Of a stretch of DNA of 64,000 nt, positions 18,561 to 57,051 are shown piece after piece (position 1 is the first letter of the stretch; the number at the start of each line of letters is the position of its first letter). The notes beneath the pieces were generated by a model that searched no databases, had not been told where the DNA came from, and saw only the letters and a list, made by a program, of their open reading frames with translations. Source of the DNA: an uncultured bacterium (GTDB lineage Bacteria > Actinomycetota > Acidimicrobiia > Spongiisociales > UBA5794); contig CAVZRA010000013.1 of NCBI GenBank assembly GCA_963777645.1, positions 86,514 to 150,513 on the forward strand, read 5' to 3'. A program made the position numbers and the translations under genes.

Positions 18561-18577
18561 TATTGATCTGCTCAATG
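18561..18577. promoter_or_regulatory. Operator-like palindrome site A: TATTGA-TCTGC-TCAATG
   Basis: 11 of 12 matches to TATTGA-N5-TCAATA. It lies 22 nt upstream of the xdhD-like start. Confidence 0.5.
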
Positions 18578-18683
18578 ATGTCGGCCTGTTTACAAAATGT
18601 CAAGTTCAACCGCCGTCAACCCCGAGGGCTACCAGGATCTCCCTGGCGCCTGGCTTGCAGTTCGCACAAGGCCATGCCACAAT

Positions 18684-18700
18684 TATTGATCATATCAATA
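18684..18700. promoter_or_regulatory. Operator-like palindrome site B: TATTGA-TCATA-TCAATA (perfect)
   Basis: Perfect 6-5-6 inverted repeat 38 nt upstream of the folD ATG. Confidence 0.55.
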
Positions 18701-18737
18701 CAGCAGTGATGTGGACCACGACGAAAGGGAGCCAAGA

Positions 18738-19604
18738 ATGGCAGCTGAGATCCTCTCCGGTCGCGACGTTGCAGCCGTTGTGAAGGAGGAGGTTGCCACC
18801 CGGGTGGCGGCGCTGAACCAACAGGGCAAGTCCGTCGGCTTAGCCACCGTTCTAGTGGGCGATGACCCGGCGTCAAAGATATACGTGCGCAACAAGCATC
18901 GAGCGGCGAAGCAGGTCGGCATGTTGTCGTTTGACTACACATTGCCCAGCGGTACCACCCAAGAGGCAGTGGAATCGCTGGTGGCACAGTTGAACGCAGA
19001 CGAGAAGATCGATGGAATGATCGTGCAACTCCCCCTGCCCGACCACCTCGACGGCCGTAGGGCGGTTCAGGCGGTTGCGCCAGCCAAGGATGCCGACGGA
19101 CTCCACCCACACAACCTCGGACTGCTCGTGCTCGATGAGCCAGGGCCGCAACCGGCAACACCGAGCGGGATCATGCGGATCCTCGACCACTATGCCATCA
19201 CAACTGCCGGCAAACGGGCCGTGGTCGTCGGCCGATCTTTCCTCGTCGGTCGCCCCATCGCCATCATGCTCGCCAGGAAAGGTGTGGATGCAACGGTGAC
19301 ACAGGCCCATTCCAGGACGCCCGAGTTGGACTCACTTCTCCGCACTGCCGACATCCTGGTGGTCGCGGCGGGCCGACCGGGCCTCGTCAACGCCCAAGAC
19401 GTAAAGCCGGGAGCGGTCGTCATTGACGTCGGCACCAATCGAACCGACGACGGATTGGTTGGCGATGTCGACTTTGCCACGGTAGCGGAGGTGGCCGGTG
19501 CAATCACACCAGTTCCCGGTGGCGTCGGCCCCATGACCATCGCCTCCCTCCTCGCAAACACGGTTGCCGCTGCCGAGCGGTCGAACGAAGGGCGCCACGT
19601 GTGA
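18738..19604 (+). CDS. folD: Bifunctional 5,10-methylene-THF dehydrogenase / methenyl-THF cyclohydrolase
   Basis: 'ATVLVGDDPASKIYVRNKHRAAKQVGM', 'DGMIVQLPLP' and 'PGGVGPMT'. ATG 18738 has a GGGAG RBS. Confidence 0.9.
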   Translation: MAAEILSGRDVAAVVKEEVATRVAALNQQGKSVGLATVLVGDDPASKIYVRNKHRAAKQVGMLSFDYTLPSGTTQEAVESLVAQLNADEKIDGMIVQLPLPDHLDGRRAVQAVAPAKDADGLHPHNLGLLVLDEPGPQPATPSGIMRILDHYAITTAGKRAVVVGRSFLVGRPIAIMLARKGVDATVTQAHSRTPELDSLLRTADILVVAAGRPGLVNAQDVKPGAVVIDVGTNRTDDGLVGDVDFATVAEVAGAITPVPGGVGPMTIASLLANTVAAAERSNEGRHV

Positions 19605-20944
19605 GGGATTCCATTTCTGCATTCATGGATGACGTGAGACAGCGCAGCGCTGGCGAAGCCGAATTCCATCAGGCTGTTAGGGAGGTCGTCGAGTCGATCT
19701 ATCCGATTCTCGACGAGTACCCGACGATACGAGAGGCGAAGGTCCTCGAACGTATGGTTGAACCCGAGCGCGTAATCATGTTCCGGGTGCCCTGGGTCGA
19801 CGACGCCGGCGCGGTTCAGATAAACCGCGGATTCCGGGTCGAGGTCAACAGCGCCATCGGTCCCTACAAGGGCGGGCTGCGGTTCCACCCCAGCGTCAAC
19901 CTTGGGATCCTGAAGTTTCTGGGATTCGAACAAGTCTTCAAGAATGCTCTCACGACACTTCCAATGGGTGGGGCCAAAGGTGGCTCGGATTTTGATCCGA
20001 AGGGCAAGAGCGAGATGGAGGTCATGCGCTTCTGCCAGTCTTTCATGAACGAACTCTGGCGCCATATCGGTGCTCGTACCGATGTGCCGGCAGGTGACAT
20101 CGGTGTCGGGGGCCGGGAAATCGGCTACCTGTTTGGCCAATACAAGAGACTGTCCAACAAGTTCGCCGGTGTCCTTACCGGCAAAGGCCCCGGCTGGGGA
20201 GGAAGTCTGATCCGACCTGAGGCCACGGGATACGGGACCATCTACTTCGCCGAGGAGATGCTCAGCGTCAAGAACGACAGCATCTACCAGAAGACTTGTC
20301 TGGTCTCGGGCTCGGGAAATGTTGCCCAATACGCTGTCGAGAACATCAACCGCATCGGCGGCAAGGCCGTGACTCTGTCCGACTCCGATGGCTACGTATA
20401 CGACAAAGATGGGATAGACGACGAGAAATTGGCGTGGGTCATGGACCTCAAGAACATCCGTCGCGGAAGGATCTCTGAGTACGCCGACAGATACGGCGTT
20501 GATTACTACAAAGGTGAGCGTCCTTGGGCGGTCGAGGGCGCGGACTGCGCTTTTCCTTGTGCGACTCAGAACGAGGTGAGCCTCGAAGACGCAAAACGCC
20601 TGATCACCAACAAAGTGGTCCTTGTTGCCGAAGGCGCCAACATGCCGACAGTGCCGGACGGCGTGCATATGTTCCAGCACGAGGGCATCTTGTTCGCCCC
20701 CGGCAAGGCAGCCAACGCCGGCGGTGTCGCCACCAGCGGACTCGAGATGGCACAGAACGCGGGGCACACCTCTTGGGATCGCGACACGGTCGACCGGAAA
20801 CTCCGCGACATCATGGTGAACATCCACAAGAACGTCTACAGCGCCGCCGCTGCCCACGACGCACCCGGCGACTATGTCAGGGGTGCCAACATCGCCGGCT
20901 TCCTCAAGGTGGCCGACGCAATGCTGGCCCAGGGCGTGGTGTAG
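19601..20944 (+). CDS. gdhA: NADP-type glutamate dehydrogenase
   Basis: Collinear with E. coli GdhA ('GPYKGGLRFHPSVNLGILKFLGFEQVFKNALTTLPMGGAKGGSDFDPKGKS'). GTG 19601 overlaps the folD TGA. Confidence 0.9.
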   Translation: MRDSISAFMDDVRQRSAGEAEFHQAVREVVESIYPILDEYPTIREAKVLERMVEPERVIMFRVPWVDDAGAVQINRGFRVEVNSAIGPYKGGLRFHPSVNLGILKFLGFEQVFKNALTTLPMGGAKGGSDFDPKGKSEMEVMRFCQSFMNELWRHIGARTDVPAGDIGVGGREIGYLFGQYKRLSNKFAGVLTGKGPGWGGSLIRPEATGYGTIYFAEEMLSVKNDSIYQKTCLVSGSGNVAQYAVENINRIGGKAVTLSDSDGYVYDKDGIDDEKLAWVMDLKNIRRGRISEYADRYGVDYYKGERPWAVEGADCAFPCATQNEVSLEDAKRLITNKVVLVAEGANMPTVPDGVHMFQHEGILFAPGKAANAGGVATSGLEMAQNAGHTSWDRDTVDRKLRDIMVNIHKNVYSAAAAHDAPGDYVRGANIAGFLKVADAMLAQGVV

Positions 20945-21000
20945 CAACGAATCGGGTACGCCCACGATCGGCAAGAATGCGACCAGCAGCGGAGGAACAA

Positions 21001-21375
21001 ATGACAAGAAAGACGGTTGGCTACTTCGAGGGAACAGATTCAACGCTGCTAACCAACCTCATCTGCAATGGCTACGACACACTTCCAGTCTCGAACGGAG
21101 TAGACCATCACGGCAAGTCCGCATACCTCATAAACGACAAGGAGAAGTACGATCTCCTTGTCGGGTATGTACACAAGTTGTACCACCCGGACCGGCTAGG
21201 CCTTCCCTACCAAAGGCTCTTCCATATTTGCAACACCTATGGAATCCCCGTCTTGATTGAGGTCCCCGCCGCTCTACAAGAAATGGCCAGGGCTCTCATG
21301 CCCGAGGCACCAGACATCGTCGAATTCCTCGACCCCGCCGACATACTCAACCGGACTATGGAACTTCTTGGATAA
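21001..21375 (+). CDS. Hypothetical 124-aa protein
   Basis: ATG 21001 directly follows GGAGGAACAA. No family recognised. G+C is about 52% by hand count, which appears lower than the flanks. The tracked ORF from 20524 overlaps the gdhA 3' end and is rejected. Confidence 0.5.
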   Translation: MTRKTVGYFEGTDSTLLTNLICNGYDTLPVSNGVDHHGKSAYLINDKEKYDLLVGYVHKLYHPDRLGLPYQRLFHICNTYGIPVLIEVPAALQEMARALMPEAPDIVEFLDPADILNRTMELLG

Positions 21376-21418
21376 CCCGGCCCCACCACCTGCGACAACC
21401 GTCCTCTTGAGCTGTGCC

Positions 21419-22057
21419 ATGCTCGAGCCCTACCTGACCCCACTTCTCGACGGCGGTATGCCCGCCACGTTCTTCGACCTCGGCCTACACGACAACCCGA
21501 CCCGGATGCGGCCGGCCCTCCAGGACCAACTGGACGCACTTGCCGAGCCCACCACGGTCCTCATCGGGTACGGATTGTGCGGCAACGGCGTGGTAGGCCT
21601 CGAGGCCGGACCACATACCCTGATCCTGCCCAAAGCCCACGATTGCATCGGCATGGCCTACGGTTCGGCCGAAGCCCACGCTGCAGCGATCAAGGCTAAT
21701 CCCGGTACCTATTACGTAACCAGGGGCTGGATCGGGACCGGGAACGATCCCCTCGAACAGTACGAACGATATGTCGAGCAGTACGGCGAGAAACGAGCCG
21801 ACCGCGTGGTCGAGGCGTTCTACGGTCACTACGACAGGGTCTGCCTAATCGCGTTCTCGGAAGAAGAACTGGCCGATGTCAGGCCGTTGGCAGCCCCCGT
21901 GGTTCAATGGTTCCAGGATCGATGGCAGCTTGAATACGTCGAGAAGGTCGGAGAGTCTTCTTTCATCGAGCGCCTCGTGACCGAACAGCGGAAGACACCC
22001 GATGAATTTGTAATCGTTGATCCCGGCGGCACGGTCACAATGGAGATGTTCCTCTAA
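21419..22057 (+). CDS. DUF1638 domain protein
   Basis: 'VLIGYGLCGNG...LILPKAHDCIGM...YYVTRGW' is typical of DUF1638. The start is ATG 21419, or TTG 21407. Confidence 0.65.
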   Translation: MLEPYLTPLLDGGMPATFFDLGLHDNPTRMRPALQDQLDALAEPTTVLIGYGLCGNGVVGLEAGPHTLILPKAHDCIGMAYGSAEAHAAAIKANPGTYYVTRGWIGTGNDPLEQYERYVEQYGEKRADRVVEAFYGHYDRVCLIAFSEEELADVRPLAAPVVQWFQDRWQLEYVEKVGESSFIERLVTEQRKTPDEFVIVDPGGTVTMEMFL

Positions 22058-25644: not shown

Positions 25645-25661
25645 TATTGACTGTTTCAATA
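25645..25661. promoter_or_regulatory. Operator-like palindrome site C: TATTGA-CTGTT-TCAATA (perfect; flanks G...C)
   Basis: Perfect inverted repeat 11 nt upstream of the FAD-subunit start, in the divergent region shared with the FNT gene. Confidence 0.55.
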
Positions 25662-25753
25662 CTAGCTGGCGAACGACTAGTCCATCCAGCTTGCCCCTCA
25701 AATCATGAATGCAGTCCCGCCGAGCTTGATCCTCGTCTCGCAAAGGTTAGAAT

Positions 25754-25770
25754 TATAGTTTCTATCAATA
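25754..25770. promoter_or_regulatory. Operator-like site D: TATAGT-TTCTA-TCAATA
   Basis: 10 of 12 matches with a perfect right half. It lies just upstream of the RBS of the FNT gene. Confidence 0.35.
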
Positions 25771-25785: not shown

Positions 25786-26655
25786 ATGACCCAACAGTTG
25801 TCCAGCCAACCTACGCTCGACGCGCTCGTTCCACCTGATATGGCTCAGAAGGCTGAAGATATCGGGGTGGCCAAGGTCAATCTGAACCCGGCAAGCTTGT
25901 TTGCTCTGGCGGTACTGGCCGGTGCCTTCATAGCCCTCGGAGCCATCTTTGCTACCACAGTCACCACCGGTGCCGGTACACTTCCATTCGGAGTCGCCAA
26001 AGTGCTCGGGGGTCTGGCCTTCAGTCTTGGCCTGATCCTCGTAATCGGCGCCGGCGCCGAACTATTCACTGGCAACAACCTGATCGTGATGGCATGGGCC
26101 GGTGGGAAGGTCTCAACCCGGCGCCTCATGTACAACTGGATCGTTGTCTACGTTGGCAACTTTGTCGGCTCAATCGTGACTGCCTACATGATGTTCTTGA
26201 GCCGCCAGTACCTCTTCGCCGATGGGGCTGTTGGTCTCAACGTCCTCAAGACCGCGACCGCAAAGACAAGTCTCGATTTCGGGCAAGCCATCGTGCTTGG
26301 AATCTTCTGTAACGCACTCGTGTGCCTCGCTGTATGGCTTTCGTTCAGCGCCCGAACGCTTACCGACAAGATCCTGGCGGTCATATTCCCTATCACCGCG
26401 TTTGTCGCTGCCGGCTTCGAGCACTCCGTCGCCAACATGTATTTCATCCCAACGGGCCTGTTCGTGAAGTCAGGGGCGATCGATGAATTCTGGAAGACAA
26501 CCGGAACTGCGGCATCCGACTTCGGCAATCTGACCTGGGGTAGATTCCTGACCGCAAACCTACTCCCGGTGACAATAGGCAACACCATCGGTGGAGTTGC
26601 ACTGGTTGGTCTCGTGTATTGGTTCATCTATCGCCGTCCGCAGACCTCGACTTGA
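25786..26655 (+). CDS. Formate/nitrite transporter (FNT) family channel
   Basis: 'AELFTGNNL' and 'GFEHSVANMYF' are FNT signatures, and there are six hydrophobic segments. Substrate (formate, nitrite or other) cannot be assigned from sequence. Confidence 0.85.
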   Translation: MTQQLSSQPTLDALVPPDMAQKAEDIGVAKVNLNPASLFALAVLAGAFIALGAIFATTVTTGAGTLPFGVAKVLGGLAFSLGLILVIGAGAELFTGNNLIVMAWAGGKVSTRRLMYNWIVVYVGNFVGSIVTAYMMFLSRQYLFADGAVGLNVLKTATAKTSLDFGQAIVLGIFCNALVCLAVWLSFSARTLTDKILAVIFPITAFVAAGFEHSVANMYFIPTGLFVKSGAIDEFWKTTGTAASDFGNLTWGRFLTANLLPVTIGNTIGGVALVGLVYWFIYRRPQTST

Positions 26656-26676
26656 CCCACCGCGTACACGATGAGA

Positions 26677-26693
26677 TATTGTTGTGATCAATG
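26677..26693. promoter_or_regulatory. Operator-like site E: TATTGT-TGTGA-TCAATG
   Basis: 10 of 12 matches. It lies in a 290-bp gap between convergent stops with no convincing gene downstream. Confidence 0.3.
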
Positions 26694-26944
26694 TTGGGCA
26701 AAGGGTCCTGGGGCGGAATCGTTCCATTCGCGTCGCGCCGGCGGTCCGGGATGCACATCATTCGATGATGAGCGCGTCACACCGGAACAGTCGCTCAGTG
26801 CGGCTTTGGACCGGATCGCCGACTCCGCAGAGCAAGCCCTCGATATGGGCGCAATCGACATACTCGTTGGTATCACGTGAATGAACGCTCAGCTCAGGAG
26901 GATCGTGATAGGCAGCAACGCTTGCAACAGATCGCGCTCTGAGA

Positions 26945-28075
26945 TTAGGAGTCCTCAGTTGGCTCGACGTTACCCTCGACCACGATCTCACCCGTGCGGA
27001 TCTTCTCAGCGATCTCGGCAACGGTCGCACGCACGTCCTCGGGAACCAGGGCCTCGTTGAGTGGAGCGATCTCACAGCCACCATCAGCGAGGAGAAACAC
27101 GATCCGCTCCATTGGAGCGTCATACGGCGTGCCATTGGTCTCATGATCCCACCACGTGTCGATCAGTGACCCGAGCGCCGGATCCCACCTCGCCACCGAG
27201 CTCGTGATAACGGTCTCGGGATAGACAGACTCCTGGTCAGTGAAATCACCGACGCCGAGGACTCCAGCACTGCTGGCAGCCTCGAGCGACCCAAAACTGG
27301 AGGCGTAGATTACGTCGGCGCCCCCCGTAATCTGTGCCGCGGCCGCCTCTCGAGCCGTCGGCGGATCGAACCAACTCTCGATGTAAGTCATCAACATCTC
27401 GACATCGGGGTTGACGGATCGAGCACCGTCGATGAAAGCGTTGGTCGTCAGGTTGACGTTCGGGAACGGAAACGCGGCCACGGCGCCGATCTTGTTCGTC
27501 TCCGTCAACAAACCGGCGGCAACACCGCCCAGATAGGTGCATTCATGGTTGAAGACGTCGATCCAATATCCGTTGCCGCCGGTGGGCTCGTTACCCGAGC
27601 CCGAATAGACAAACATCGTCTCCGGGTAATCATCCTTGACGGGTGCGATCGCATCGGAAAATGTGCTGTGGCCCAGGATGATGTCGTATTTGCCCGAGGC
27701 CGCCAGATCCCTAACCACTCGCTCGGCATCGGTCGCCGCGATGTTCTCGAACGTCTCGTAGCTGATATCGAGGTTGTGCGGCCGAGATTCCACCGCTCGA
27801 TCCAGGGCCGCCACCATGGTCGAGTTCCACGGCTCTTCGAGCACACTGCCAATGAACATCGCGATCCTCAGCGACTCGGGACCATCGGTTGCGGCAGGTG
27901 CTTCCGACGACACGGGGCTCGCCTCTGTCGTCGACACCGCCGTCGTAGTGCTCGACGAGGCTGTCGTAGTGCTCGACGAGGCTGTCGTAGTGCTCGACGA
28001 GTCGCCACAAGCGGCCAGCATCAGCGCCAGCACAACACTGAGAGCCAAAAACACAGCTCTTCGTCCTGTCATCAT
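26945..28075 (-). CDS. BMP/PnrA-family ABC substrate-binding lipoprotein (nucleoside-type), orphan copy
   Basis: ATG 28075 has a GAGGAG RBS. The lipobox is 'LMLAACG', followed by a Ser/Thr linker and a BMP-family body paralogous to 39140 and 57296. Confidence 0.85.
   Translation of the reverse strand: MMTGRRAVFLALSVVLALMLAACGDSSSTTTASSSTTTASSSTTTAVSTTEASPVSSEAPAATDGPESLRIAMFIGSVLEEPWNSTMVAALDRAVESRPHNLDISYETFENIAATDAERVVRDLAASGKYDIILGHSTFSDAIAPVKDDYPETMFVYSGSGNEPTGGNGYWIDVFNHECTYLGGVAAGLLTETNKIGAVAAFPFPNVNLTTNAFIDGARSVNPDVEMLMTYIESWFDPPTAREAAAAQITGGADVIYASSFGSLEAASSAGVLGVGDFTDQESVYPETVITSSVARWDPALGSLIDTWWDHETNGTPYDAPMERIVFLLADGGCEIAPLNEALVPEDVRATVAEIAEKIRTGEIVVEGNVEPTEDS
27942..28001. repeat. 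21-bp tandem repeat x2.9 (gtcgtagtgctcgacgaggct)
   Basis: Units at 27942, 27963 and 27984. They encode the 'SSSTTTA' x3 linker after the lipobox Cys. Confidence 0.85.
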
Positions 28076-29614: not shown

Positions 29615-29631
29615 TATTGATGATAGTAATA
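29615..29631. promoter_or_regulatory. Operator-like site F2: TATTGA-TGATA-GTAATA
   Basis: 10 of 12 matches with a perfect left half. It lies 29 nt upstream of the proposed TTG start of the amidohydrolase. Confidence 0.35.
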
Positions 29632-29718: not shown

Positions 29719-29735
29719 AATTGCTTGTATCAATA
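29719..29735. promoter_or_regulatory. Operator-like site F: AATTGC-TTGTA-TCAATA
   Basis: 10 of 12 matches with a perfect right half. It lies 71 nt upstream of the serA TTG start. Confidence 0.35.
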
Positions 29736-32102: not shown

Positions 32103-32108
32103 GCCCCG

Positions 32109-33514: not shown

Positions 33515-33531
33515 TATTGATACAGTCAATG
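33515..33531. promoter_or_regulatory. Operator-like site G: TATTGA-TACAG-TCAATG
   Basis: 11 of 12 matches. It lies 51 nt upstream of the corrinoid-protein ATG at 33582. Confidence 0.5.
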
Positions 33532-38986: not shown

Positions 38987-39003
38987 TATTGACAGTACCA
39001 ATA
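38987..39003. promoter_or_regulatory. Operator-like site H: TATTGA-CAGTA-CCAATA (flanks G...C)
   Basis: 11 of 12 matches, upstream of the BMP lipoprotein gene at 39140. Confidence 0.5.
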
Positions 39004-44651: not shown

Positions 44652-44668
44652 GTTTGATATGATCAATA
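44652..44668. promoter_or_regulatory. Operator-like site I: GTTTGA-TATGA-TCAATA
   Basis: 10 of 12 matches with a perfect right half. It lies 23 nt upstream of the Rieske oxygenase ATG. Confidence 0.4.
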
Positions 44669-47242: not shown

Positions 47243-47258
47243 CGGAGGGAAAACAGCG

Positions 47259-48071
47259 ATGACCACCAAGACGCCGAGTGTTAGGCACCTCTACACAACC
47301 GGAGCCTCCGAGAATCGTTTGCATTACATCGATTTTGGTGGAACCGGCCGGCCGCTGATCGCCATGCATGGCGTTACCGGAAACGCTTGGAATTGGTACA
47401 AGGTGGCAGAGGGACTGACCGATCGCCGACACGTCTATGCGCTCGATTTCCGGGGCTACGGTGAAAGCCAATGGTCATCCGAGGGCGCCTACACCACGTC
47501 CGACCATGTTGCTGATCTGGGCGCTGTACTCGACTCGCTTGGGGCGCCCGTCGTAGACCTCATCGGATCGTCATGGGGTGCGCTAGTAGCAATCCAATAC
47601 GCCGCAGAGAGCCCCGATCGTGTTGGCCAGCTAGTCGTGGTCGACGTTGAGGCATCCTTCGCCCAGGGAGAAACCGATCTCTTCCCACGCCCGACGAGCT
47701 ATGCCGGCATCAACGAGGTAGCTGCCGGAGAAGCCCAACGCAACCCGAATGCCACCCCCGAAATGGTGGCAATGATGACTGCGACTTGCTACACCCCCGG
47801 AGCTGAAGGCACCCTCGTGCCAAAGCACGATCCGTACTTCTTCAAGCGATGGCCGTTTCGCTCAGACGACCACTGGGAGCTGCTCGAGACGATAAAGGCA
47901 CCAACTCTGCTACTCCACGCAGCCAGCAGCTTTGTCAACGGTGCAACCATGGAGAAGATGGCAGACCGAATCCCCAACGCACTCCTCGTTGAGATTGCCG
48001 AGAGTGGCCACGCCGTACCCGTGGAGAACCCTGCTGGAATCGTCGCCGCCGCAGCCTCGTTCCTCGAATAG
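47259..48071 (+). CDS. Alpha/beta-fold hydrolase
   Basis: 'LIAMHGVTGNAWNW' and the nucleophile elbow 'GSSWG'. ATG 47259 follows GGAGGGAAAACAGCG. Confidence 0.8.
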   Translation: MTTKTPSVRHLYTTGASENRLHYIDFGGTGRPLIAMHGVTGNAWNWYKVAEGLTDRRHVYALDFRGYGESQWSSEGAYTTSDHVADLGAVLDSLGAPVVDLIGSSWGALVAIQYAAESPDRVGQLVVVDVEASFAQGETDLFPRPTSYAGINEVAAGEAQRNPNATPEMVAMMTATCYTPGAEGTLVPKHDPYFFKRWPFRSDDHWELLETIKAPTLLLHAASSFVNGATMEKMADRIPNALLVEIAESGHAVPVENPAGIVAAAASFLE

Positions 48072-48097: not shown

Positions 48098-48114
48098 TAT
48101 TGCTTAGATCAATA
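48098..48114. promoter_or_regulatory. Operator-like site J: TATTGC-TTAGA-TCAATA
   Basis: 11 of 12 matches. It lies 83 nt upstream of the second corrinoid-protein gene. Confidence 0.5.
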
Positions 48115-48196
48115 TTCATGTAGTAGGCTACGGGCAGATGGCTGATGAACCTATGGACAGCCCCATGTAGAAGCCTTCGAGTCAAGGAGCCAAGCA

Positions 48197-48895
48197 ATGG
48201 GTAGCCCAAATGAGTACGAGAGCCTCAGGCAGGCGATCCTGGAGGGGGACGAGCAAGCAGCGGCTGCAATCGGCCACGAAGTGGCCGCCGCCGCTGAGAA
48301 CCCTCTCGGTGCCGTAGAAGTCGCCTCCAATGTGATCCGAGAAGTTGGCGACAAGTTCGGAACAGGAGAGCTATTCCTTCCCGAAATGGTGCTGGCCGCT
48401 GAGGCAATGCAGGCTTTCATGGCCGAAGTCTCCGCTCGACTCGAAGCAGAGGCCGGTGAGGGCGGCAGCCGGAAACGCGGCAAAGTGGTAATTGGGACCG
48501 TACAGGGCGACATCCATAGTATTGGAAAGAACATCGTTGCAACCATGCTGGGCGCGGCCGGCTATGAGGTTGTCGACCTCGGCGTCAATGTGGGCCCCAT
48601 GGAAGCGATCCAGGCCGCCGAGAAAAGCGGCGCATCTTTCATCGGTCTATCGGCTCTAATGACGACGTCCATGCCGTATCAAAAGGAAGTCGTTGACCTC
48701 CTCAACGAGCTCAACCAGCGAGACGATTTCTTCGTCCTCATCGGCGGTGGACCGGTCACACGAGAGTACGCCGACGACATAAACGCCAACGGTTGGGCAG
48801 CGGATGCAGCGGCAGCCGTGCAAGTGTGCGATCGGCTCGCTTCGGGCGATACCACGCCTTCCGACACCAATCTCGTCTACGTAGTGGCGGAGTGA
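48197..48895 (+). CDS. Cobalamin-binding corrinoid protein, cassette 2
   Basis: 'GDIHSIGKN' (DxHxxG), 'SALMTTS' and 'VLIGGGPV'. AAGGAG RBS. Confidence 0.85.
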   Translation: MGSPNEYESLRQAILEGDEQAAAAIGHEVAAAAENPLGAVEVASNVIREVGDKFGTGELFLPEMVLAAEAMQAFMAEVSARLEAEAGEGGSRKRGKVVIGTVQGDIHSIGKNIVATMLGAAGYEVVDLGVNVGPMEAIQAAEKSGASFIGLSALMTTSMPYQKEVVDLLNELNQRDDFFVLIGGGPVTREYADDINANGWAADAAAAVQVCDRLASGDTTPSDTNLVYVVAE

Positions 48896-48898
48896 ACA

Positions 48899-50281
48899 AT
48901 GAAACTTGAACGTATTTTGGACGTGCTGGACCGCGCTCACAACGGGCCGGTCTACAAGGAACGCGAATTCAACCTGAACGTGGTCGCGAGCACCATCGCC
49001 GCCAAGGTCAAGAAGTTTGGCCTCGCCGGGACTGTCGATACTGAGAACCCCATCGGGAGCAACGACGAGCTCGCCGACCGTTTCTATCAGGCGGGTTTCG
49101 AAGCTGCAGTGGAGATCGGTCTCCTCTGCGGCGACACGAATCGGGCGATTCGCTTCAACGCAGAAGAACTCCAGGGACTAGTCGATGAGGCACCCAGTGA
49201 GTTCTGGCTTGGCGAAGGCGACCAGAGAGTCCATTTTCAGCATCGCGGGCTGAACGACCCCACGACGCCGGTATGGACGGTACCGCTCAGCATTGTGGTG
49301 TCCGAGGACATCTTTGTCGATATGGTCCACGGCCTGGCCGCGATCGATGTCGTCGATTGCCTCGAAGGGCCTTCCCTGGAAACTGTCTACGGACGGCCGC
49401 TTCGTTCCGGATCACCGTACGAACATCTTGCGGGCCGGTATCAGGCCGATCTGATGTACGAGGGGATCAAGAGAGCAGGGCGAGTCGGAATGCCGATGGA
49501 TGCCATCGGCTCATCGACAACGCACTACGGGCTCCTGGGAGGCTATGGCGTTGAGGGTGGATACCGCCCCAAGTACGACCTTGTGACCATCCTGTCCATC
49601 GGCGATTTCTGGACCTCTTACGAGTCGCTCTTCAAGCTGACCCAGGTGTATGTTGCCGGTGGCGAACACATCTCAGCGTCATCCTGGGTGATGCTCGGCG
49701 GCTATGCCGGCGGCCCGGAAGGCACCGCGGTCGCCTCGGTCGCCTACACACTTCTCATGTACGCAGTGTTCCAGGGATCACGAGGCGGCGTGCCTCCGTT
49801 TGATATCTCCTATATGGGTAACTCTGGCAGACGGGCGCAATGGGCATTGAGTGTTTCCAACCAGGCGATCACACGTAACACCAACAACGTATATCACTCG
49901 ATCGCCAACCAGGTGGCGGGTCCCGGCACCGAAATGCTGCTCTACGAGAGCTTGGTCGGAATGACCACCATGGCTGTCACCGGTGTCACCAATGTCGTCG
50001 GGACTCGCTCCGCAGGCGGCCGGCTCACCGACTACCTGACACCTCTCGAGCACCAGTTCGCCGGCGAGGTCTTCAAGGCCGCAGCCGGGCTGAGCCGCGA
50101 GCAAGGTAATGAGATCGCCAGGAAGTTCATCCCCAAGTACGAAGATCAACTCGTCGCCAAGCCAGACGGGCGCTCCTTCCAGGAGCTATACGACATCGAC
50201 ACGCTGACACCGATTCCCGAGTGGCAAGCCATGTACGACAAGGTGAAGCAAGAAGCAATCGACGCAGGTCTACCGCTCTAG
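48899..50281 (+). CDS. MtmB-family methyltransferase without pyrrolysine, copy 2 (divergent paralog)
   Basis: 460 aa with no in-frame TAG. It is collinear with copy 1 and with archaeal MtmB ('ADRFYQAGFEAAVEIGLLCGDTNR', 'AGRVGMPMD', 'AGPGTEMLLYES', 'LTPIPEWQAMYDKVKQEAIDAGLPL'). Confidence 0.8.
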   Translation: MKLERILDVLDRAHNGPVYKEREFNLNVVASTIAAKVKKFGLAGTVDTENPIGSNDELADRFYQAGFEAAVEIGLLCGDTNRAIRFNAEELQGLVDEAPSEFWLGEGDQRVHFQHRGLNDPTTPVWTVPLSIVVSEDIFVDMVHGLAAIDVVDCLEGPSLETVYGRPLRSGSPYEHLAGRYQADLMYEGIKRAGRVGMPMDAIGSSTTHYGLLGGYGVEGGYRPKYDLVTILSIGDFWTSYESLFKLTQVYVAGGEHISASSWVMLGGYAGGPEGTAVASVAYTLLMYAVFQGSRGGVPPFDISYMGNSGRRAQWALSVSNQAITRNTNNVYHSIANQVAGPGTEMLLYESLVGMTTMAVTGVTNVVGTRSAGGRLTDYLTPLEHQFAGEVFKAAAGLSREQGNEIARKFIPKYEDQLVAKPDGRSFQELYDIDTLTPIPEWQAMYDKVKQEAIDAGLPL

Positions 50282-50353
50282 GAGTTCCTATCCTCGGACC
50301 TATCTCGCTCAAAGCACGACTACGGTGCGTGAACGCCATTCAGAGGGCTTCCT

Positions 50354-52424
50354 ATGGATGAAACGACACGCACCGAGTCATTTACCCTGGTCTTTCAACC
50401 TTCCGGCGCTCGAGGAAAGGTCGAGGCTGGGACCAGTATTAGACGTGCGGCAACCGACCTCGGAGTGGAGATCGAGAGCATCTGCGCCGACGCTGCCACC
50501 TGCGGCAAGTGCCGGGTCTTGATCGAAGACGGCCACTTTGGCAGCATTACCTCGTCACCGGACCATGCTTCCGAGATGCGATCCACCGAGGAGTTGTGGA
50601 TCACCAAACGGGCCAAGACCTGGGTCAAGATGGGTCTCGACCCCGACCGCCTGCGGCTGTCGTGCCAGGCCAAAGTCCAAGGGGACATGGTGGTGTTTGT
50701 CCCTGAGTCAAGCCGGGGCAACCGACAGATCATTCGTAAGGCCGCAACCGACCGCCACATCGAAATCCACCCCGCTGTTCGGCGCTACTACCTGGAGCTA
50801 GACCCGGCAACACTCGAAGACCCTCTTGGAGATCTCGAACGGGTCTCCCGAAGTCTGGTGGCAGCCATGACAAGGATCCACGGTAAGCCGGGCTGGGTCG
50901 AACCCGATCCCAACGACATCTGGTTCGATTTCCCCGTCATCCGGACGATGGGTGCCGTCATTCGCGAGGCCGATTGGAAGGTGTCGCTAACGGTATGGCA
51001 GAACCGCGAGGTTATCGACATTCGGCCTGGATACAGCGAGGACCTATACGGGATCGCCGTTGATGTCGGTAGCACCGCGATTGCCATCTACATCTGCAAT
51101 CTCATCACGGGTGAGGTGGTTGACACCGATTCGATGATGAATCCACAGACCGCGTTTGGCGACGACATCATGTCCCGCATGACCTATGAGAATGAGCACG
51201 AAGACGGTCTCGCCATCCTTCATGATGCCGTATTGTCGGGGCTCAGCAAGCTGATCGCTAGAGCTCTACGAGCCAACCGCATCAAGGCAATTGATGTTCA
51301 TGAATTGACTGTGGTCGGCAACACAACCATGCAGCATCTGCTGCTCGGAATCTCCACCAAGTACCTCAGCACAGTGCCGTTTGTCCCGACCTCGCATCGT
51401 GCCTTCGACATCAAGGCTCGCGATCTGCCGATCGTGGCCAACCCCAACGCCAACATCCACGTTCTACCGATCGCGGCCAGCTTTGTCGGCGCCGATGCGA
51501 TGGCAGTTGCCATCGCAGAAGAGCCGCACAAGCAAGACGAGATCCTGCTCATTATCGACATTGGGACCAACGCTGAGCTCATCGCCGGAAACCGCGAGCG
51601 ACTGGTGTGTACATCAACACCTACCGGGCCGGCGTTCGAGGGTGCTCACATAGAATATGGCATGCGAGCGGCAGACGGCGCTCTGGAGCGGATCGAGATC
51701 GATCCGGAGACTTTCGAACCGCGTTACCGGGTTATCGGGACCAAGGGTTGGGGACCGGACCAGCTCGAGAGTGACGAACCAACCGATCGACGGCGGCCCG
51801 GTCAAAGGCATTTGTGGCTCCGCAATCATCGACGGCGTCGCCGAGATGTTCCGGACAGGGATCATCACACCACGCGGCCATTTCAACAAGGACCTGGACT
51901 CGGAGCGGATCCGCCAGGGTGAGCTGGGCTGGGAATACGTGGTGGCGTGGGCTGACGAGACCTCGATCGGCAGGGATATCCCGATCACACTGGACGATGT
52001 GCGTCAGATCCAACTAGCCAAGGCCGCCCTGTATACGGCTTCGCACATACTGCTCAGAGAATTAGGCGTCACGACCCCGGACAAAATCATTCTGGCCGGC
52101 GCCTTTGGCTCCCATATCGACAAGACCCGGGCAATGATCCTCGGTATGATCCCCAACTGCCCGCTTGATCGAGTGTTCTCAGTCGGAAACGCCGCAGGCG
52201 ATGGTGCTCGAATCGCCCTTCTCAACCGATACAAGCGACTCGAGGCTCAGGAGATAGCTCGAACCATCACCCGCGTTGAGCTGCCCGTCGACCCGGACTT
52301 TCAAAGCGAATACATGCAGGCGCTCAACTTCCCCCACATGGTGCACGAGTTCACCTCGATCGCCGATCTCATCCCTGCCTACAAGGCCGACCCGATGGCA
52401 GCAAAGCTCAGCAACTCTCGCTAA
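50354..52424 (+). pseudogene. RamA/RACE-type corrinoid reductive activase (N-terminal 2Fe-2S ferredoxin + ASKHA ATPase) with one frameshift near 51780
   Basis: N-terminal 'CGKCRV...LSCQA'. The ASKHA part is 'GIAVDVGSTAIA' and 'IDIGTNAEL'. Frame 2 is good to about 'GWGPDQLES', then frame 0 continues with 'PIDGGPVKGICGSAIIDGVAEMF...FGSHID...GNAAGDGA'. Confidence 0.75.
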
Positions 52425-52496: not shown

Positions 52497-53093
52497 CTAA
52501 CGAATAAAAACCGCGCAGTGCCATTTCCCGTGTTGTGCCACCCGTGTGGCCGACCCGACGGGATAGGTGTAGGCGTCACCTGCCTCGAGCTCAACCGTGT
52601 CGTAACCGCTCAGAGCGACGGAAATCGATCCATCCAGGACGTAGATCATCTCTTCGCCCTCGTGGGCAAGTTCGCAACCCGATTCGGCGCCCTCTTCTGC
52701 CGTAATGAGATTCGTCTCGACGTGATGGTGGGCCCCCTCGACGAGGAAGTAAGCACACGCTCCATGCCCCAGTTGGTAACGGCGGGTGGCCGCACCCCGT
52801 ACCAGGCTCACCTCAGTCGAGACGGCGGGCTGGAGCAGGACTTGCGCCGATGTTCCGAGTGCGGCGGCAACCTGATGCAACGCCAGGAGACTCGGCATCG
52901 CCTTGCCATTCTCCAACTGGCTGAGAAATGGCTGTGACAAGCCACACATGTCGGCTAATTGTTGGAGCGTGAGACCTCGAGCCTTGCGATGCTCTCGGAG
53001 CGCCTGACCGAGTGACACCGCCAACTCATCACCGTCCACCGACACAGCGGCAGAGGCATCATTACCAGATTGTGGGTCTTGTTGTGTGATCAT
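52497..53093 (-). CDS. XRE-family HTH regulator with C-terminal cupin domain
   Basis: 'LGQALREHRKARGLTLQQLADMCGLSQPFLSQLENGK' is the HTH, and the cupin region is 'HEGEEMIYVLDGSI'. ATG 53093 avoids an Arg-rich extension and an overlap with the upstream gene. Confidence 0.8.
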   Translation of the reverse strand: MITQQDPQSGNDASAAVSVDGDELAVSLGQALREHRKARGLTLQQLADMCGLSQPFLSQLENGKAMPSLLALHQVAAALGTSAQVLLQPAVSTEVSLVRGAATRRYQLGHGACAYFLVEGAHHHVETNLITAEEGAESGCELAHEGEEMIYVLDGSISVALSGYDTVELEAGDAYTYPVGSATRVAQHGKWHCAVFIR

Positions 53094-53098: not shown

Positions 53099-53115
53099 TA
53101 TCGACTATACCAATA
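53099..53115. promoter_or_regulatory. Operator-like site K: TATCGA-CTATA-CCAATA
   Basis: 10 of 12 matches. It lies 6 nt upstream of the XRE-cupin ATG, which suggests a leaderless transcript or autoregulation. Confidence 0.4.
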
Positions 53116-53202: not shown

Positions 53203-55519
53203 CTACTCCCGTGCCGCAATAGCCGTCGCCAGCCGCTGAGGCGTGATCGGAATCTGAGTTATCGCAATGCCAGCGGCGTCTGCAACTGCGTTCGCAATCG
53301 CGGGACCTGGACCGAGGATGGGATGTTCCCCGATGCCTTTGGCGCCGAATGGACCCAACGCATCAGGCACCTCGATCAGGGAGGTCTTTATCCGAGGCAT
53401 GTCGAGGATCGTGGGTAGTCGATAGTCAACGAGATTGGGGTTCAGGATTCGTCCATCCTCGATCATCACCTCTTCCCAAAGGCTACCGCCGAGACCCTGA
53501 GCGATGGCTCCTTCGATCTGGCCTACCAAGGCCATCGGGTTTATAGCCTTGCCGACGTCGTGGGACGCGGTATAGCCAAGGATCGTCACCTGACCGGTCT
53601 GTGGATCGATTTCGACCTCGGCGATGTGGGTCCCGAATCCAAATGTCGGGTAAAGGCCTTCGGCGAACCCACCGCCAATTGGCTCATCGTGGTGACCATA
53701 GGCCGACCATGAGCCAACGCCAATCAGTGGTCCACCAAATCCATAGATCGAGGTTTCTGCTACAGCCTGTAACGTCATCCCGACTTCGGGTTCCGATCGC
53801 TTGTAGGCGCGCCCTCCCGAGACGGTGATGTCACTCTCCCGGCATCCCAACGCTCGAGCCGCACATTCCGCGATCTTGGCATAGAGGTCCTCACTCGCCA
53901 GCCGCACGGCGCTCCCGTTGTCGAAGACGGTTCGGCTTGCAATCGAGCCGAGGTCAAACGCGGTGTGATCGGAATCGGGGGCGGCCACCGAGATTTGATT
54001 CATAGACACTCCGAGCACTTCGGCAGCAATCTGAGATAGAACCGTGTGTGTCCCGGTTCCGATTTCAACGGCAGCCGTCGTGATCGAAATTGTCCCGTCC
54101 TCGGCGAGATGAACATTTGCCGAAGACGACAGCAAGCCGACCGTCTTGACAACATTTGCGATACCGATACCCCGATTGGGACCGAGCTTGCCCTTCTTGT
54201 CCCAGTAGCCAGAATTGTCTAGCGCCTGCTCCATCGTCTCTCTGATATGCACATCATGAAGCGTTGCTCCAGAAATCAATTCGTCCCCGTTAGCCACCAG
54301 GTTCGCCAATCGCAGCTCAGCAGGGTCAATGGCCAACTCCTTAGCCATGGCATCGAGATGGGTCTCGAGCGCAAACACCGCTTGAATCGTGCCATACCCG
54401 CGCATACAGCCGTGGTCGGGGTTGTTGGTATAGACCGCGCGGGTCCTCACCTTCCAGTTGGGAAACCGGTAGACCCCCTCCGATGAACTCAGCGCATGAC
54501 TAGCCGTGCCTATCACGTGGTCGGAGAACCCCCCGGCATCGGCAACGATATCGATATCTCCACCGGTCAACCTACCGTCGCGAGTAGCGCCGAGCTTCAC
54601 CCTGATACTGAACGGAGCTCGGCCGTTGGCCGCAATGAACTCTTCGCTCCGCGTCATCGCCAGCCGAACGGGCAGTCCCGTCTTCAGAGCTAGTAGCGCA
54701 GTCAATGGTTCCAGATTGCTCTTGAGCTTTCCTCCGAAACCTCCTCCGCATTCGAGCGGTACTACTTTGACCTCACCCATCGACATCCCTAGCGCCATCG
54801 CCAATTCCGCATGGCACACGCTCAGTTGCTGGGTAGCAGTCCAAACGGTGAGACGGCCCCGGTGGTCAAAACCCGCTACGCATGCGTGCGGTTCGATGGG
54901 CGCTTGATTGATGGCGCCGGTTCGGTACACACGTTCCAAGACAACGTCAGACTCCGCAAAGGCCTTGTCGACGTCGCCCCGTTCCAACTGGGCTTCCATG
55001 CATACGTTCCCGTACCTGATGTACGGAAAGACCGCTGCATAGTCGGCAAGGTCGGGATGCAACTGGGGAGCGTCGTGCGCCAGTGCGGCATCGGTATCCA
55101 ATATGGGCTCACGGTCCTCGTAGGTAACCGCGATGAGACCGAGAGCCTGCTCTGCGACGCTTTCACTCACTGCAGCAACAGCAGCAACGCGATCGCCGAT
55201 GTACTTGACCTCGCCCTTAGCAAGGATCGTCTTGTCCTTCAGGTAGATCCCGTAGCGGGTATCTGGGGCATCGTCACCGGTGATGACGGCTTTGACGCCG
55301 GGAAGAGCGAGAGCCTTGCTGACGTCGATATCGACAATGCGTGCGTACGGCCTATCGCTGAAGAGGATCTTGGCATGCAACATGCCCGTCAGGTAAAAGT
55401 CGGTGCTGTACTTGGAGGCTCCAGTGACTTTGGCAATGCTGTCGATCTCTGGTCACCGACTTGCCGACGACCTTGTACTCGGGCTTCGATACCTGCTTGT
55501 GTGTTTTCGAGGTGGTCAT
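53203..55519 (-). pseudogene. Xanthine-dehydrogenase-family molybdopterin-binding large subunit with one frameshift near 55447
   Basis: ATG 55519 overlaps the FeS-subunit stop (ATGA) and encodes 'MTTSKTHKQVSKPEYKVVGKSVTR'. Deleting one base at about 55447 joins it to 'IDSIAKVTGASKYSTDFYLTGMLHAKILFS...'. The uninterrupted ORF is 53203-55383. Confidence 0.8.
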
Positions 55520-55989
55520 TGTTCGCCCTCGGCCATCAAGAGTGCCGCCGTGTTGACCGCAGAAATGATCGATCCGTAGCCGGTGCACCGACACAGGTTC
55601 CCGGCGAGACCAGCACGAATCTGATCTTCGGTCGGATGAGCCTCTTCGGCCAGTAGCGCCGCTGACATCATGATCATGCCAGGGGTGCAATAGCCGCATT
55701 GCGCTGCCCCAAAGTCGACGAAGCCCTGCTGGACCGGGTGCAGGCCTGACTCCCCCGCAAGCCCTTCAACCGTCATAATCTCCTTGCCCTGGGCCGTTGC
55801 GGTCAGGACAAGGCAACTGGTTACAGGGCGCCCGTCGAGCAACACTGTGCATGCCCCGCAGTCCCCCGTCGCACATCCCTTCTTGGACCCGGTGAGACCT
55901 AGAGTCTCCCGCAGGGTATCAATGAGCAGCGCGCCGGGCTCTGCTACTACATCTCGGATCTCTCCGTTGACGTGAAGATTGATCTCCAT
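55516..55989 (-). CDS. (2Fe-2S)-binding small subunit of Mo hydroxylase
   Basis: 'CATGDCGACTV', 'CGYCTPG' and 'CRCTGY'. Confidence 0.85.
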   Translation of the reverse strand: MEINLHVNGEIRDVVAEPGALLIDTLRETLGLTGSKKGCATGDCGACTVLLDGRPVTSCLVLTATAQGKEIMTVEGLAGESGLHPVQQGFVDFGAAQCGYCTPGMIMMSAALLAEEAHPTEDQIRAGLAGNLCRCTGYGSIISAVNTAALLMAEGEQ

Positions 55990-55991
55990 GC

Positions 55992-56870
55992 CTACGCCTC
56001 CTTCTGCTTGCCGACGCGCTCACCGAGATCGACAAGCAGGCGGGCCACCAATCGCTCGATCATCTTCTTTCGATAATCTGCGCTGCCACGCACGTCGCTG
56101 ATCGGTGAGATCCCGGCTGCCGCCACCCGAGCGGCTTCCTTCGCAAGAGCCAAGTCCATCTTTGCCGAGCCGTTGATGACTTCCTCTGCCGCTGTCGCCC
56201 GTATTGGTGTTGGGGCCACAGCGCCCAGGCCGATCCGAGCGTGCAGACCTGCTGGTTCTTGCCAAAGCGCCACCGCGACACCAACAATCGCAAGGTCCAT
56301 CGCACGACGTGGGCTCAGCTTCGTGTAGGAAGCCACCGCACCGGGTGCCGGCCATGGCAGCCACAGTGCTTCAAGCATCTCGCCCCGATCGAGAACGGTC
56401 TTGCCAGGCCCTACGAAGAAGTCCTCTAGCAGGACGTTTCTACGACCGGCAGCAGATACGATGTGTACCTCGGCTTTGAGCACCAACAACGGGGCGACCG
56501 TATCCGCCGATGGCGAGGCGTTGCATATGTTGCCCCCGATGGTTGCCATGTTCCGTATCTGCGGGCCGGCAACCACAACCGCCCCCTCGGAAAGCACCGG
56601 GAACCGTTCTGCAATAACATCTGAAGCGAGTATGTCGACCAACCGCACCGCAGCCCCTATCCGCAACCCTTCGGGCTCCACAGCTATCTCACCAAGCTCG
56701 GCGACGCCGGTTATGTCCACCATCGTTATCTCGGACCCCGGCTGATCCCGGTACTTCAGAAGTAGATCGGTGCCGCCGGCTAAAAGGCGGGATTCGGTAT
56801 CACGATCGTCAATGATCGAAAGAAGATCTTCAAGCTGTGCTGGGCAAACGACTTCTCTGATCGAGGCCAT
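55992..56870 (-). CDS. FAD-binding medium subunit of Mo hydroxylase
   Basis: 'LLAGGTDLLLKY' and 'ATIGGNICNASPSAD'. The start is ATG 56870. Confidence 0.85.
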   Translation of the reverse strand: MASIREVVCPAQLEDLLSIIDDRDTESRLLAGGTDLLLKYRDQPGSEITMVDITGVAELGEIAVEPEGLRIGAAVRLVDILASDVIAERFPVLSEGAVVVAGPQIRNMATIGGNICNASPSADTVAPLLVLKAEVHIVSAAGRRNVLLEDFFVGPGKTVLDRGEMLEALWLPWPAPGAVASYTKLSPRRAMDLAIVGVAVALWQEPAGLHARIGLGAVAPTPIRATAAEEVINGSAKMDLALAKEAARVAAAGISPISDVRGSADYRKKMIERLVARLLVDLGERVGKQKEA

Positions 56871-56921
56871 GGGTTGCTCCCGACTTCGTGTCTCGGCTGC
56901 TAGCCGGCAGTCTACCGCGAA

Positions 56922-56938
56922 AATTGATTCCATCAATA
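56922..56938. promoter_or_regulatory. Operator-like site L: AATTGA-TTCCA-TCAATA
   Basis: 11 of 12 matches. It lies 52 nt upstream of the FAD-subunit start. Confidence 0.5.
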
Positions 56939-57034
56939 CAGGCTCATCAACACGGGCTCAACGACAGAATTCACACATCCAAGGACAACGAACCGCAACT
57001 AGATTATGTGCCCTCCCAGTTTTTGGTCTGCGAG

Positions 57035-57051
57035 TATTTGCATGATCAATA
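57035..57051. promoter_or_regulatory. Operator-like site M: TATTTG-CATGA-TCAATA
   Basis: 10 of 12 matches. It is the second site in the 425-bp divergent region between the Mo-hydroxylase and BMP/ABC operons. Confidence 0.35.

Follow-up and report, generated by a model that had tools for sequence, protein, structure and literature searches.

The stretch of DNA considered here, a window of 64,000 nucleotides from an uncultured marine actinobacterium of the Acidimicrobiia (UBA5794; contig CAVZRA010000013.1, positions 86,514 to 150,513), holds a 47-kb island in which molybdenum (Mo) hydroxylases, deaminase-type amidohydrolases, importers, corrinoid methyltransferase cassettes and one-carbon (C1) enzymes stand side by side, and it raises the question of whether so mixed a set of genes is controlled together and, if so, by which protein. 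A first-pass annotation had proposed that a 17-bp palindrome, TATTGA-N5-TCAATA, recurs at 14 intergenic sites and is the operator of a dimeric factor that ties the operons into one regulon. The palindrome is interpreted here as the operator of a homodimeric local factor, most probably the protein with an XRE-type helix-turn-helix (HTH) and a cupin domain that is encoded at 52497-53093, an assignment made by association from sequence and given a probability of roughly 0.7.

Recurrence and form of the palindrome

A search of the window for TATTGA-N5-TCAATA with at most two mismatches returned exactly the 14 sites listed in the first-pass annotation (two perfect, five with one mismatch and seven with two; Table 1), and dinucleotide shuffles of the whole window gave a mean of 0.61 matches with a maximum of 3. 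A curated gene map was assembled from open reading frames (ORFs) and Pfam domains, with start codons corrected by ribosome-binding site (RBS) and domain position and moved where an ORF extension crossed a site and an RBS with an in-frame start lay downstream. On this map non-coding DNA amounts to 5,646 bases (8.8% of the window, 57% GC), and it contains all 14 sites, with none in the 58 kb of coding DNA, as had been described. Shuffles of the non-coding segments only gave a mean of 0.074 matches (maximum 2; analytic expectation 0.077), and since the spacers are in addition not especially AT-rich, composition does not explain the 14 sites; the view that their recurrence is very unlikely by chance is thereby confirmed.

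The palindrome is real, but the conserved unit is longer than first described. Column counts over the 14 sites give a 7-3-7 arrangement, TATTGAT-N3-ATCAATA, in which column 7 is T or C at every site and column 11 is A at 11 of the 14, and in which the two half-sites are equally conserved with their centres 10 bp apart. The further extension to G...C that had been noted at several sites turned out to be weak (G in 4 of 14, C in 7 of 14), the flanking bases being more often A(A/G)...(C/T)T. A symmetric position weight matrix built from the 14 sites scores them at 20.4-29.7 bits, which is partly circular for the same sites, and the next best position in the 64 kb reaches 10.1 bits, so that no intermediate class exists. 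A literature search that included a 2025 survey of XRE palindromes did not find the operator sequence in this form, in agreement with the earlier statement that it matched no recognised published motif; its one hit was a half-site resemblance to the LuxR operator of Vibrio.

Thirteen of the 14 sites lie upstream of a gene start. For most of them a distance of 6-85 nt from the start codon had been claimed, and 12 do lie at 5-82 nt, but site 57035 stands at 244 nt and site 26677, which is situated between convergent genes, precedes no ORF. The four divergent promoter regions carry pairs of sites as reported, with centre-to-centre spacings of 123, 109, 104 and 113 bp, and the co-directional runs of genes headed by sites take in every gene between 15.9 and 62.1 kb. 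Neither the motif search nor the matrix found a match left of 18.5 kb in the window, and the claim that no gene left of 15.9 kb carries the motif is true of the sites themselves; however, genes continue on the same minus strand behind the xdhD-like gene down to ~10.5 kb (an amidohydrolase, a DPD-like flavoprotein and one unknown), and because they follow it with a 20-nt gap or overlaps, these genes at 10.5-15.9 kb probably belong to the xdhD-like unit and are transcribed from the promoter at 18561. Beyond the window the regulon extends to at least one further unit. On a 4.9-kb metagenome contig that is 99.97% identical to window positions 60647-64000 and extends past the window end, a perfect fifteenth site, TATTGATATGATCAATA, was found (L043:11-27; ~65526-65542 on the scale of the window), and the NUDIX hydrolase gene that begins 6 nt downstream of it heads NUDIX-FTHFS-EamA.

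The possibility that the motif is no protein operator at all is very remote. It contains TTGA, which is -35-like, and it is AT-rich in a genome of 60% GC; it is nevertheless conserved at orthologous positions across genomes, as set out below. Each of the forms that such a non-operator might take was rejected. A chance or AT-rich spacer word is ruled out by the non-coding shuffles and the 57% GC of the spacers, and a sigma-factor promoter element by the symmetry of the motif, its variable distance from genes (5-244 nt) and its occurrence in both orientations. An RNA hairpin or terminator is ruled out by the Rfam 15 search of the window, which gave no match at the gathering threshold, and by weak or absent folds (0 to -6.1 kcal/mol for single sites, with five sites lacking any fold). 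Similarly, the flanks of a mobile or dispersed repeat would be conserved and here they are not, and absence from 58 kb of coding DNA would not be expected of a restriction-modification target.

Conservation in related genomes

Species-representative genomes were scanned with an alignment of 34 regulator orthologues, which returned 26 loci from Acidimicrobiia (UBA5794, BMS9Abin12, UBA4744 and Candidatus Spongiisocius/Spongiisociaceae) together with 16 unrelated controls, the related genomes being seen as 20-kb pieces (numbered L below). A metagenome scan with peptide patterns of the regulator, which were too specific, added one useful relative (L044, 56% identity). The motif is conserved at orthologous promoters in at least 10 genomes, including variants in a distant Spongiisociaceae group, and only one match of 13 bits or more occurs in ~143 kb of control loci whose GC content is at least 60%. 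Four further loci come with gene calls made independently in the database; the 14 matches of at least 15 bits in them are all intergenic and stand at nearly the same distances from start codons as in the window.

In the close group, whose regulators are 59-77% identical to that of the window, the motif stands upstream of FolD, the Rieske oxygenase, corrinoid protein 2 and the xdhD-like gene. With the four further loci included, the FolD site lies 36 nt upstream in L001/L053 (12214) and L006 (17220) and 37 nt upstream in the window, and the Rieske site is found at the same place in L003 (17489), L005 (18332) and L056 (15995), at 22 nt in the last as in the window. Sites for corrinoid protein 2 occur in L003 and L005 and at 78-80 nt in L054 and L055 (82, 80 and 78 nt, window first), those for Mo-hydroxylase M in L003 (5185) and at 40-53 nt in L053, L055 and L056 (51, 50, 53 and 40 nt, window first), and that of the xdhD-like gene in L005 at 1642. 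Relatives outside this group are among those with a site between the orthologous amidohydrolase and Bmp genes (L007 at 12140, L013 at 18526 and L022 at 16398). The pair between Bmp3 and Mo-hydroxylase M is kept down to its deviant half-site TGCAAATA; the deviant half-site of 57035 in the window, TATTTGCA, is itself kept in orthologues, and TATTGAnnnTGCAAATA stands beside the Bmp3 orthologues in L001, L003, L005, L053 and L054. The NUDIX gene carries a site in L053 (6 nt), L056 (37 nt), L006 and L026, and in the last two it is directly followed by the regulator gene.

In the spacer alignments (A2-A5) the motif stands out as conserved against DNA that has otherwise diverged. The site is the only conserved intergenic block of the Rieske spacer (A2), and the corrinoid-protein-2 spacer (A3 and A5) and the Mo-hydroxylase M/Bmp3 spacer with sites 56922 and 57035 (A4) are covered likewise. 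In the distant group (regulator ~50% identical) the outer TATTG...CAATA is kept and the inner bases are changed (TATTACCAYCACCAATA and TATTGGCACCAGCAATA), the variants lying in the divergent spacers between an amidohydrolase/alpha/beta hydrolase and SDR-Rieske and between an amidohydrolase and Bmp. Inner positions that are GC-rich, together with the same recognition helix, were observed in the Spongiisociaceae-type loci L007, L011, L013, L014, L018, L019, L021 and L025. Since the recognition helix is unchanged where the inner bases vary, recognition of these bases may fall to a different part of the protein or depend on DNA shape alone.

The proposal of one operator for a dimeric factor therefore survives comparison with chance, with coding DNA, with its own symmetry, with orthologous promoters and with the footprints of conservation in the spacers. 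As far as the available data reach, the density of sites is far from equal in coding and non-coding DNA, and the motif does not lack conservation upstream of orthologous genes.

Candidate regulator and promoter geometry

The XRE-cupin protein to which the first-pass annotation had pointed is still the best candidate for the regulator. It combines an N-terminal HTH (HTH_3 2e-14, HTH_31 3.2e-13) with a Cupin_2 domain (7.2e-9; 35.7 bits against a cut-off of 27.2), its sequence matches in the PDB are XRE HTH domains including 1Y9Q, and the closest of its 166 homologues come from metagenome-assembled genomes of Acidimicrobiia. Its HTH is the only DNA-binding domain found by Pfam between 15.9 and 63 kb. 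In relatives its gene is always placed between Mo-hydroxylase L and the RACo/MtmB or DUF1638/FolD genes, and all 14 sites lie within 35 kb of it before enzyme or transporter operons, an arrangement that the relatives share. All of 34 orthologues, at 46-77% identity, have the same predicted recognition helix, SQPFLSQLENG, which parallels the invariant outer TATTG/CAATA bases across both groups. A weak copy of the motif stands 5-6 nt before the regulator ATG in the window, L001, L002, L003, L004 and L054 (20.6 bits and 5 nt in the last). A separate observation on the family is a database protein, P0119, that joins an XRE-HTH to a NUDIX domain.

A genuine operator might alternatively be bound by a factor encoded elsewhere, such as a TetR-, GntR- or LacI-type purine regulator, with the XRE-cupin protein controlling other genes or only itself, and this is unlikely. 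The window is only 64 kb of the genome, the XRE-cupin protein is assigned by association only, and the TetR-family LuxR of Vibrio reads the same half-site, TATTGAT, at a different spacing. A TetR gene lies beside the xdhD-like gene in L056, but in that locus only. A PadR-like gene is present at 9286-9654, but the nearest site is 9 kb away and none belongs to the gene itself. Against a factor encoded elsewhere stand also the lack of a second DNA-binding domain in the 47-kb island, the synteny of the XRE-cupin gene in every relative, the conserved site over its own -10 box and the parallel between its invariant helix and the invariant outer motif bases.

Several sites coincide with sequences that resemble core promoter elements. 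A scan for sigma70-like promoters gave nine matches in 40 kb, four of which coincide with sites (Table 1), each with its -10 element inside the site or just before it. The match that ends at 25753 implies that site 25754 covers the expected transcription start. Read by eye, a -10-like hexamer CACAAT abuts site 18684, and the TTGACA within site 38987 could act as a -35 element with TAGCCT 18 nt downstream. A TANNNT box occupies operator positions 7-12, in gene orientation, in the operators of the Rieske, NUDIX, corrinoid-protein-1, regulator and amidohydrolase-B genes; at 44652, before the Rieske gene, the central TATGAT is such a -10 box and is conserved in four genomes. The left half of site 48098 places TTGCTT at the -35 position, 18 nt before a TANNNT that five genomes keep at the same alignment position, so that the operator of corrinoid protein 2 covers the -35 element and the spacer. 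By eye, the sites of Bmp2, Bmp3 and Mo-hydroxylase-3 possibly lie over -35 elements in the same way. The overlap of sites with core promoter elements fits repression by occlusion.

The regulator gene itself offers the same layout. In Actinobacterial promoters a distance of 10 nt between the end of the -10 box and the ATG implies an mRNA that is leaderless or nearly so, and an operator lying across the -10 box is the classical layout of negative autoregulation. The central TATAGT of site 53099 is a TANNNT -10 box, and TANNNT stands at the centre of the regulator-gene site in six of seven close genomes, which suggests that 53099 is the autoregulatory operator of a leaderless regulator mRNA.

In the proposed mechanism each HTH of the dimer would read one TATTGAT half-site, and because one helical turn (10 bp) separates the half-site centres, both would lie on the same face of the DNA. 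The operators are predicted to overlap the -35 element, the -10 element or the transcription start of ~14 units in the window and of at least one outside it; the bound dimer would block RNA polymerase and would also repress its own leaderless gene. The cupin domain would bind a small molecule, presumably a substrate or intermediate of the pathway, upon which the dimer would be released and the whole island would be switched on.

The XRE-cupin protein might instead bind the operator as an activator or with a dual role, at least at sites 29719, 48098 and 57035, a reading that overlaps with the repressor model and is about as improbable as a factor encoded elsewhere. These sites lie 70-244 nt from their start codons, the promoters there are predicted ones, and some XRE-family proteins, for example NceR, do activate. 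Wherever a promoter has been proposed, however, the site overlaps its -35 element, its -10 element or its start; this includes 48098, with its conserved -10 box, and all characterised XRE-cupin factors inhibit (PMC7901475).

Several observations weigh against the XRE-cupin protein as the repressor that acts through the motif. The related loci were fetched through the regulator, which makes the co-occurrence of regulator and motif partly a matter of construction. Of the sites in the window, the one before the regulator gene scores lowest; its counterpart is degenerate in L001 and L005 (5-9 bits), and the distant group lacks it. A 3' frameshift replaces the conserved last 11 residues of the regulator in the window; the +1 frame restores the family's C-terminus, ...RFLFVSSPPSF, and the regulator may be defective in this strain or the assembly may be wrong. 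Promoter-like matches are overall not above chance, and since Actinobacterial promoters are poorly predicted, the geometry of operators and promoters is tentative. The distances of 29719, 48098 and 57035 would also suit an activator. Lastly, site 26677 stands before no recognisable gene that it could control: nothing related to the translations of 26694-26947 was found in any locus, and there is no conserved small gene or remnant. This site faces 250 nt of non-coding DNA and then runs antisense into the Bmp 3' end (26677-26944); it may be a relic or may serve to express a small or antisense RNA.

Island genes, possible pathway and known systems

The sites, the units that they head and other features of the window are collected in Table 1.

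Table 1. Putative operators, the units behind them, promoter-like matches, the candidate regulator and frameshift-like breaks, in window coordinates. Mismatches are counted against TATTGA-N5-TCAATA and scores come from the position weight matrix.
Feature	Position	Strand	Mismatches	Score (bits)	Context
Putative operator	18561..18577		1	23.9	21 nt upstream of ATG 18539, xdhD-like gene
Fused 2Fe-2S/Mo-hydroxylase (xdhD-like; near selenium (Se)-dependent xanthine dehydrogenase (XDH) model)	15957-18539	minus			headed by 18561 site
Sigma70-like match TTGACA-17-CATCAT	18603-18575	minus			-10 runs into site 18561
Putative operator	18684..18700		0 (perfect)	29.7	37 nt upstream of FolD ATG 18738
FolD-GDH-DUF1638 unit	18738-22057	plus			headed by 18684 site
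Putative operator	25645..25661		0 (perfect)	25.8	31 nt upstream of GTG 25613
pucD-like Mo-hydroxylase M-S-L operon	25613-22130	minus			headed by 25645 site
Sigma70-like match TTGATC-16-TAGAAT	25726-25753				ends directly before site 25754
Putative operator	25754..25770		2	24.1	15 nt upstream of formate/nitrite transporter (FNT) ATG 25786
Promoter-like match TTGACC-17-GATATT	26652-26680				overlaps orphan site 26677
Putative operator, orphan	26677..26693		2	23.0	22 nt past FNT stop, facing 3' end of convergent Bmp gene
Putative operator	29615..29631		2	23.1	~28 nt upstream of probable TTG start 29586
8-oxoguanine-deaminase-like amidohydrolase-Bmp unit	29586-26945	minus			headed by 29615 site
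Putative operator	29719..29735		2	24.9	70 nt upstream of SerA-like TTG 29806
SerA - class-V aminotransferase - DUF1015 unit	29806-33290	plus			headed by 29719 site
Sigma70-like match TTGTCA-17-TACAGT	33498-33526				-10 is the centre of site 33515
Putative operator	33515..33531		1	25.4	50 nt upstream of corrinoid protein 1 ATG 33582
Corrinoid protein - MtmB-like - pterin methyltransferase - ORF226 - MetV - MTHFR	33582-38955	plus			headed by 33515 site
Putative operator	38987..39003		1	22.9	37 nt upstream of Bmp2 ATG 39041
Bmp-ABC transporter-SDR unit	39041-44621	plus			headed by 38987 site
Putative operator	44652..44668		2	23.5	22 nt upstream of Rieske/VanA-like oxygenase ATG 44691
Rieske-amidohydrolase-alpha/beta hydrolase unit	44691-48071	plus			headed by 44652 site
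Putative operator	48098..48114		1	27.8	82 nt upstream of corrinoid protein 2 ATG 48197
Corrinoid protein - MtmB-like - RACo unit	48197-52424	plus			headed by 48098 site
Candidate regulator, 198-aa XRE-type HTH (HTH_3) + Cupin_2 protein (Pfam)	52497-53093	minus			
Putative operator, weakest	53099..53115		2	20.4	5 nt upstream of XRE-cupin ATG 53093
Third Mo-hydroxylase M-S-L operon, running into regulator gene	56870-53203	minus			headed by 56922 site
Putative operator	56922..56938		1	25.0	51 nt upstream of ATG 56870
Putative operator	57035..57051		2	24.1	244 nt upstream of Bmp3 ATG 57296
Bmp-ABC transporter unit (Bmp3)	57296-62127	plus			headed by 57035 site
Frameshift-like break	40233-41592				ABC ATPase
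Frameshift-like breaks	43880-44621				SDR, split over three frames
Frameshift-like break	44691-45771				Rieske, 294 aa versus 359 in relatives
Frameshift-like break	50354-52424				RACo, split in two
Frameshift-like break	52497-52540				regulator's last 11 residues
Frameshift-like break	55384-55516				N-terminus of third Mo-hydroxylase large subunit

Counted together with the fifteenth site, the island brings at least 15 operators and ~45 genes into ~50 kb. It encodes three Mo-hydroxylases of the xanthine-dehydrogenase type, three amidohydrolases of the 8-oxoguanine/guanine-deaminase type and three ABC importers of the Bmp/PnrA type, along with a Rieske oxygenase, RACo, serine-type genes, a formate channel and a tetrahydrofolate (THF) C1 branch of pterin methyltransferase, MetVF, FolD and FTHFS. 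The xdhD-like enzyme scores 817.6 bits on the model of Se-dependent XDH, just below its cut-off of 830, the second Mo-hydroxylase is pucD-like, and for the amidohydrolases the nearest families are 8-oxoguanine and 5'-deoxyadenosine deaminases. On the left flank, a MocA/MobA-like nucleotidyltransferase (1167-1811) and a YqeC protein (2662-3522), accessory genes typical of the maturation of (seleno-)Mo-hydroxylases, are encoded without the motif. Two full-length MtmB homologues (34438-35802 and 48899-50281) have no in-frame amber codon and are therefore non-pyrrolysine members; for a methanogen-type methyltransferase family it is unusual to occur in an actinobacterium in which a Rieske oxygenase and cytochrome c are encoded as well. 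Between the pterin methyltransferase and MetV lies ORF226 (36695-37375; 226 aa), which has no Pfam match and is 59-68% identical in L006 and L026, and is thus a real gene of the methyl-THF cassette. A non-pyrrolysine MtmB homologue has been tied to the demethylation of tetramethylammonium/choline in a methanogen (PMC13044021).

The seven frameshift-like breaks fall within ~16 kb of the island and are explained either by indels introduced in the assembly or by a pathway that is decaying in this strain. The leader of the operon for corrinoid protein 2, MtmB and RACo (48140-48180) contains a 23-nt block, GGCTGATGAACCTATGGACAGCC, that five genomes share, one of them with a single substitution, while the leader around it diverges; the CTCGAG downstream of it is the same in all five. 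In the RNAalifold prediction a GGCUG/CAGCC hairpin is accompanied by a second helix, in which CUC pairs with the GAG of the Shine-Dalgarno sequence, and the leader has no Rfam match. The block could be a leader RNA switch or the site of a second protein. A short upstream ORF is unlikely, the start codon being ACG in L055.

Tentatively, and with the odds against it as a whole, the operator set may delimit one co-regulated, undescribed pathway of ~50 kb for an N-methylated purine-like heterocycle in marine and sponge-associated Acidimicrobiia, with C1 units leaving via THF. The substrate would be taken up by the Bmp/PnrA-type importers and N-demethylated by the MtmB-type methyltransferases, with reactivation by RACo, and by the Rieske oxygenase. 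The ring would then be hydroxylated by the three xanthine-dehydrogenase-type and possibly selenium-dependent Mo enzymes and opened by the deaminase-type amidohydrolases, and the methyl and formimino carbons would be oxidised via THF (MetVF, FolD, FTHFS) to formate for export. The signal for the XRE-cupin protein would be an intermediate or the substrate itself, and the co-regulated NUDIX hydrolase might shape the effector pool. The genomics paper on UBA5794 makes no mention of purine, xanthine, corrinoid or XRE genes.

Local repressors of this general kind are known from other phyla. PuuR of E. coli is the putrescine utilisation repressor of a catabolic island and also controls its own gene. 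The C-terminus of the window regulator's family, ...SPPSF, resembles the ...TPTTF of PuuR, and both proteins have the two-domain architecture. The NCBIfam PuuR model (NF007408) aligns over 5-175 of 185 positions, but at 51.9 bits, far below the equivalog cut-off of 211, the regulator is not a PuuR orthologue, and pathway and operator also differ. In Pseudomonas, seven characterised XRE-cupin factors are all local inhibitors that act as dimers on palindromic sites, probably by promoter occlusion, and some of them are autoregulated (PMC7901475). The window regulator shares their N-terminal XRE HTH and C-terminal cupin sensor, the palindromic motif, to which its binding is predicted, and the neighbouring uptake and catabolism genes (PMC7901475). 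It differs in its phylum (Acidimicrobiia), recognition helix, operator sequence and pathway. Most of the Pseudomonas members have one or two targets, as against at least 15 operators in ~50 kb here, and only PauR (12 sites) is comparable in number, its targets being scattered whereas those of the island are clustered.

Two other operators resemble the motif in part. The LuxR/SmcR/HapR operator of Vibrio, TTATTGATA-N4-TATCAATAA, has an identical half-site core, TATTGAT/ATCAATA (PMC8034623), but its repeats are arranged as 9-4-9, 3 bp further apart than 7-3-7, and are read by a TetR-family protein in a quorum-sensing regulon of gammaproteobacteria; the likeness is most probably a coincidence. 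The RDRM of Deinococcus DdrO (PMC6765133, PMC12565409) is likewise a 17-bp palindrome bound by an XRE HTH dimer, in a family in which autoregulation is common, but unlike the window regulator DdrO recognises another sequence, lacks a cupin domain and is derepressed by proteolysis and not by a ligand.

Local XRE-cupin repressors with palindromic operators have thus been described before (PMC7901475), and what is new here is the operator, the phylum, the target set and the pathway. The window provides a concrete regulon, with an operator, a candidate repressor and ~15 promoters, for the uncultured and environmentally widespread actinobacterial order UBA5794/Spongiisociaceae. We know of no transcriptional regulation described for this group. 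The shared operator is independent evidence that the puzzling mixture of genes works as one pathway, and it narrows the search for the substrate, since the effector of the cupin domain should be a substrate or intermediate of that pathway. The paradigm of the local repressor would be extended from Pseudomonas to Actinobacteria with an unusually large and tightly clustered target set, and the repressor-operator pair could become a biosensor or an inducible switch. The finding overturns no current view, and its main value lies in the handle that it gives on an undescribed pathway in uncultured Acidimicrobiia.

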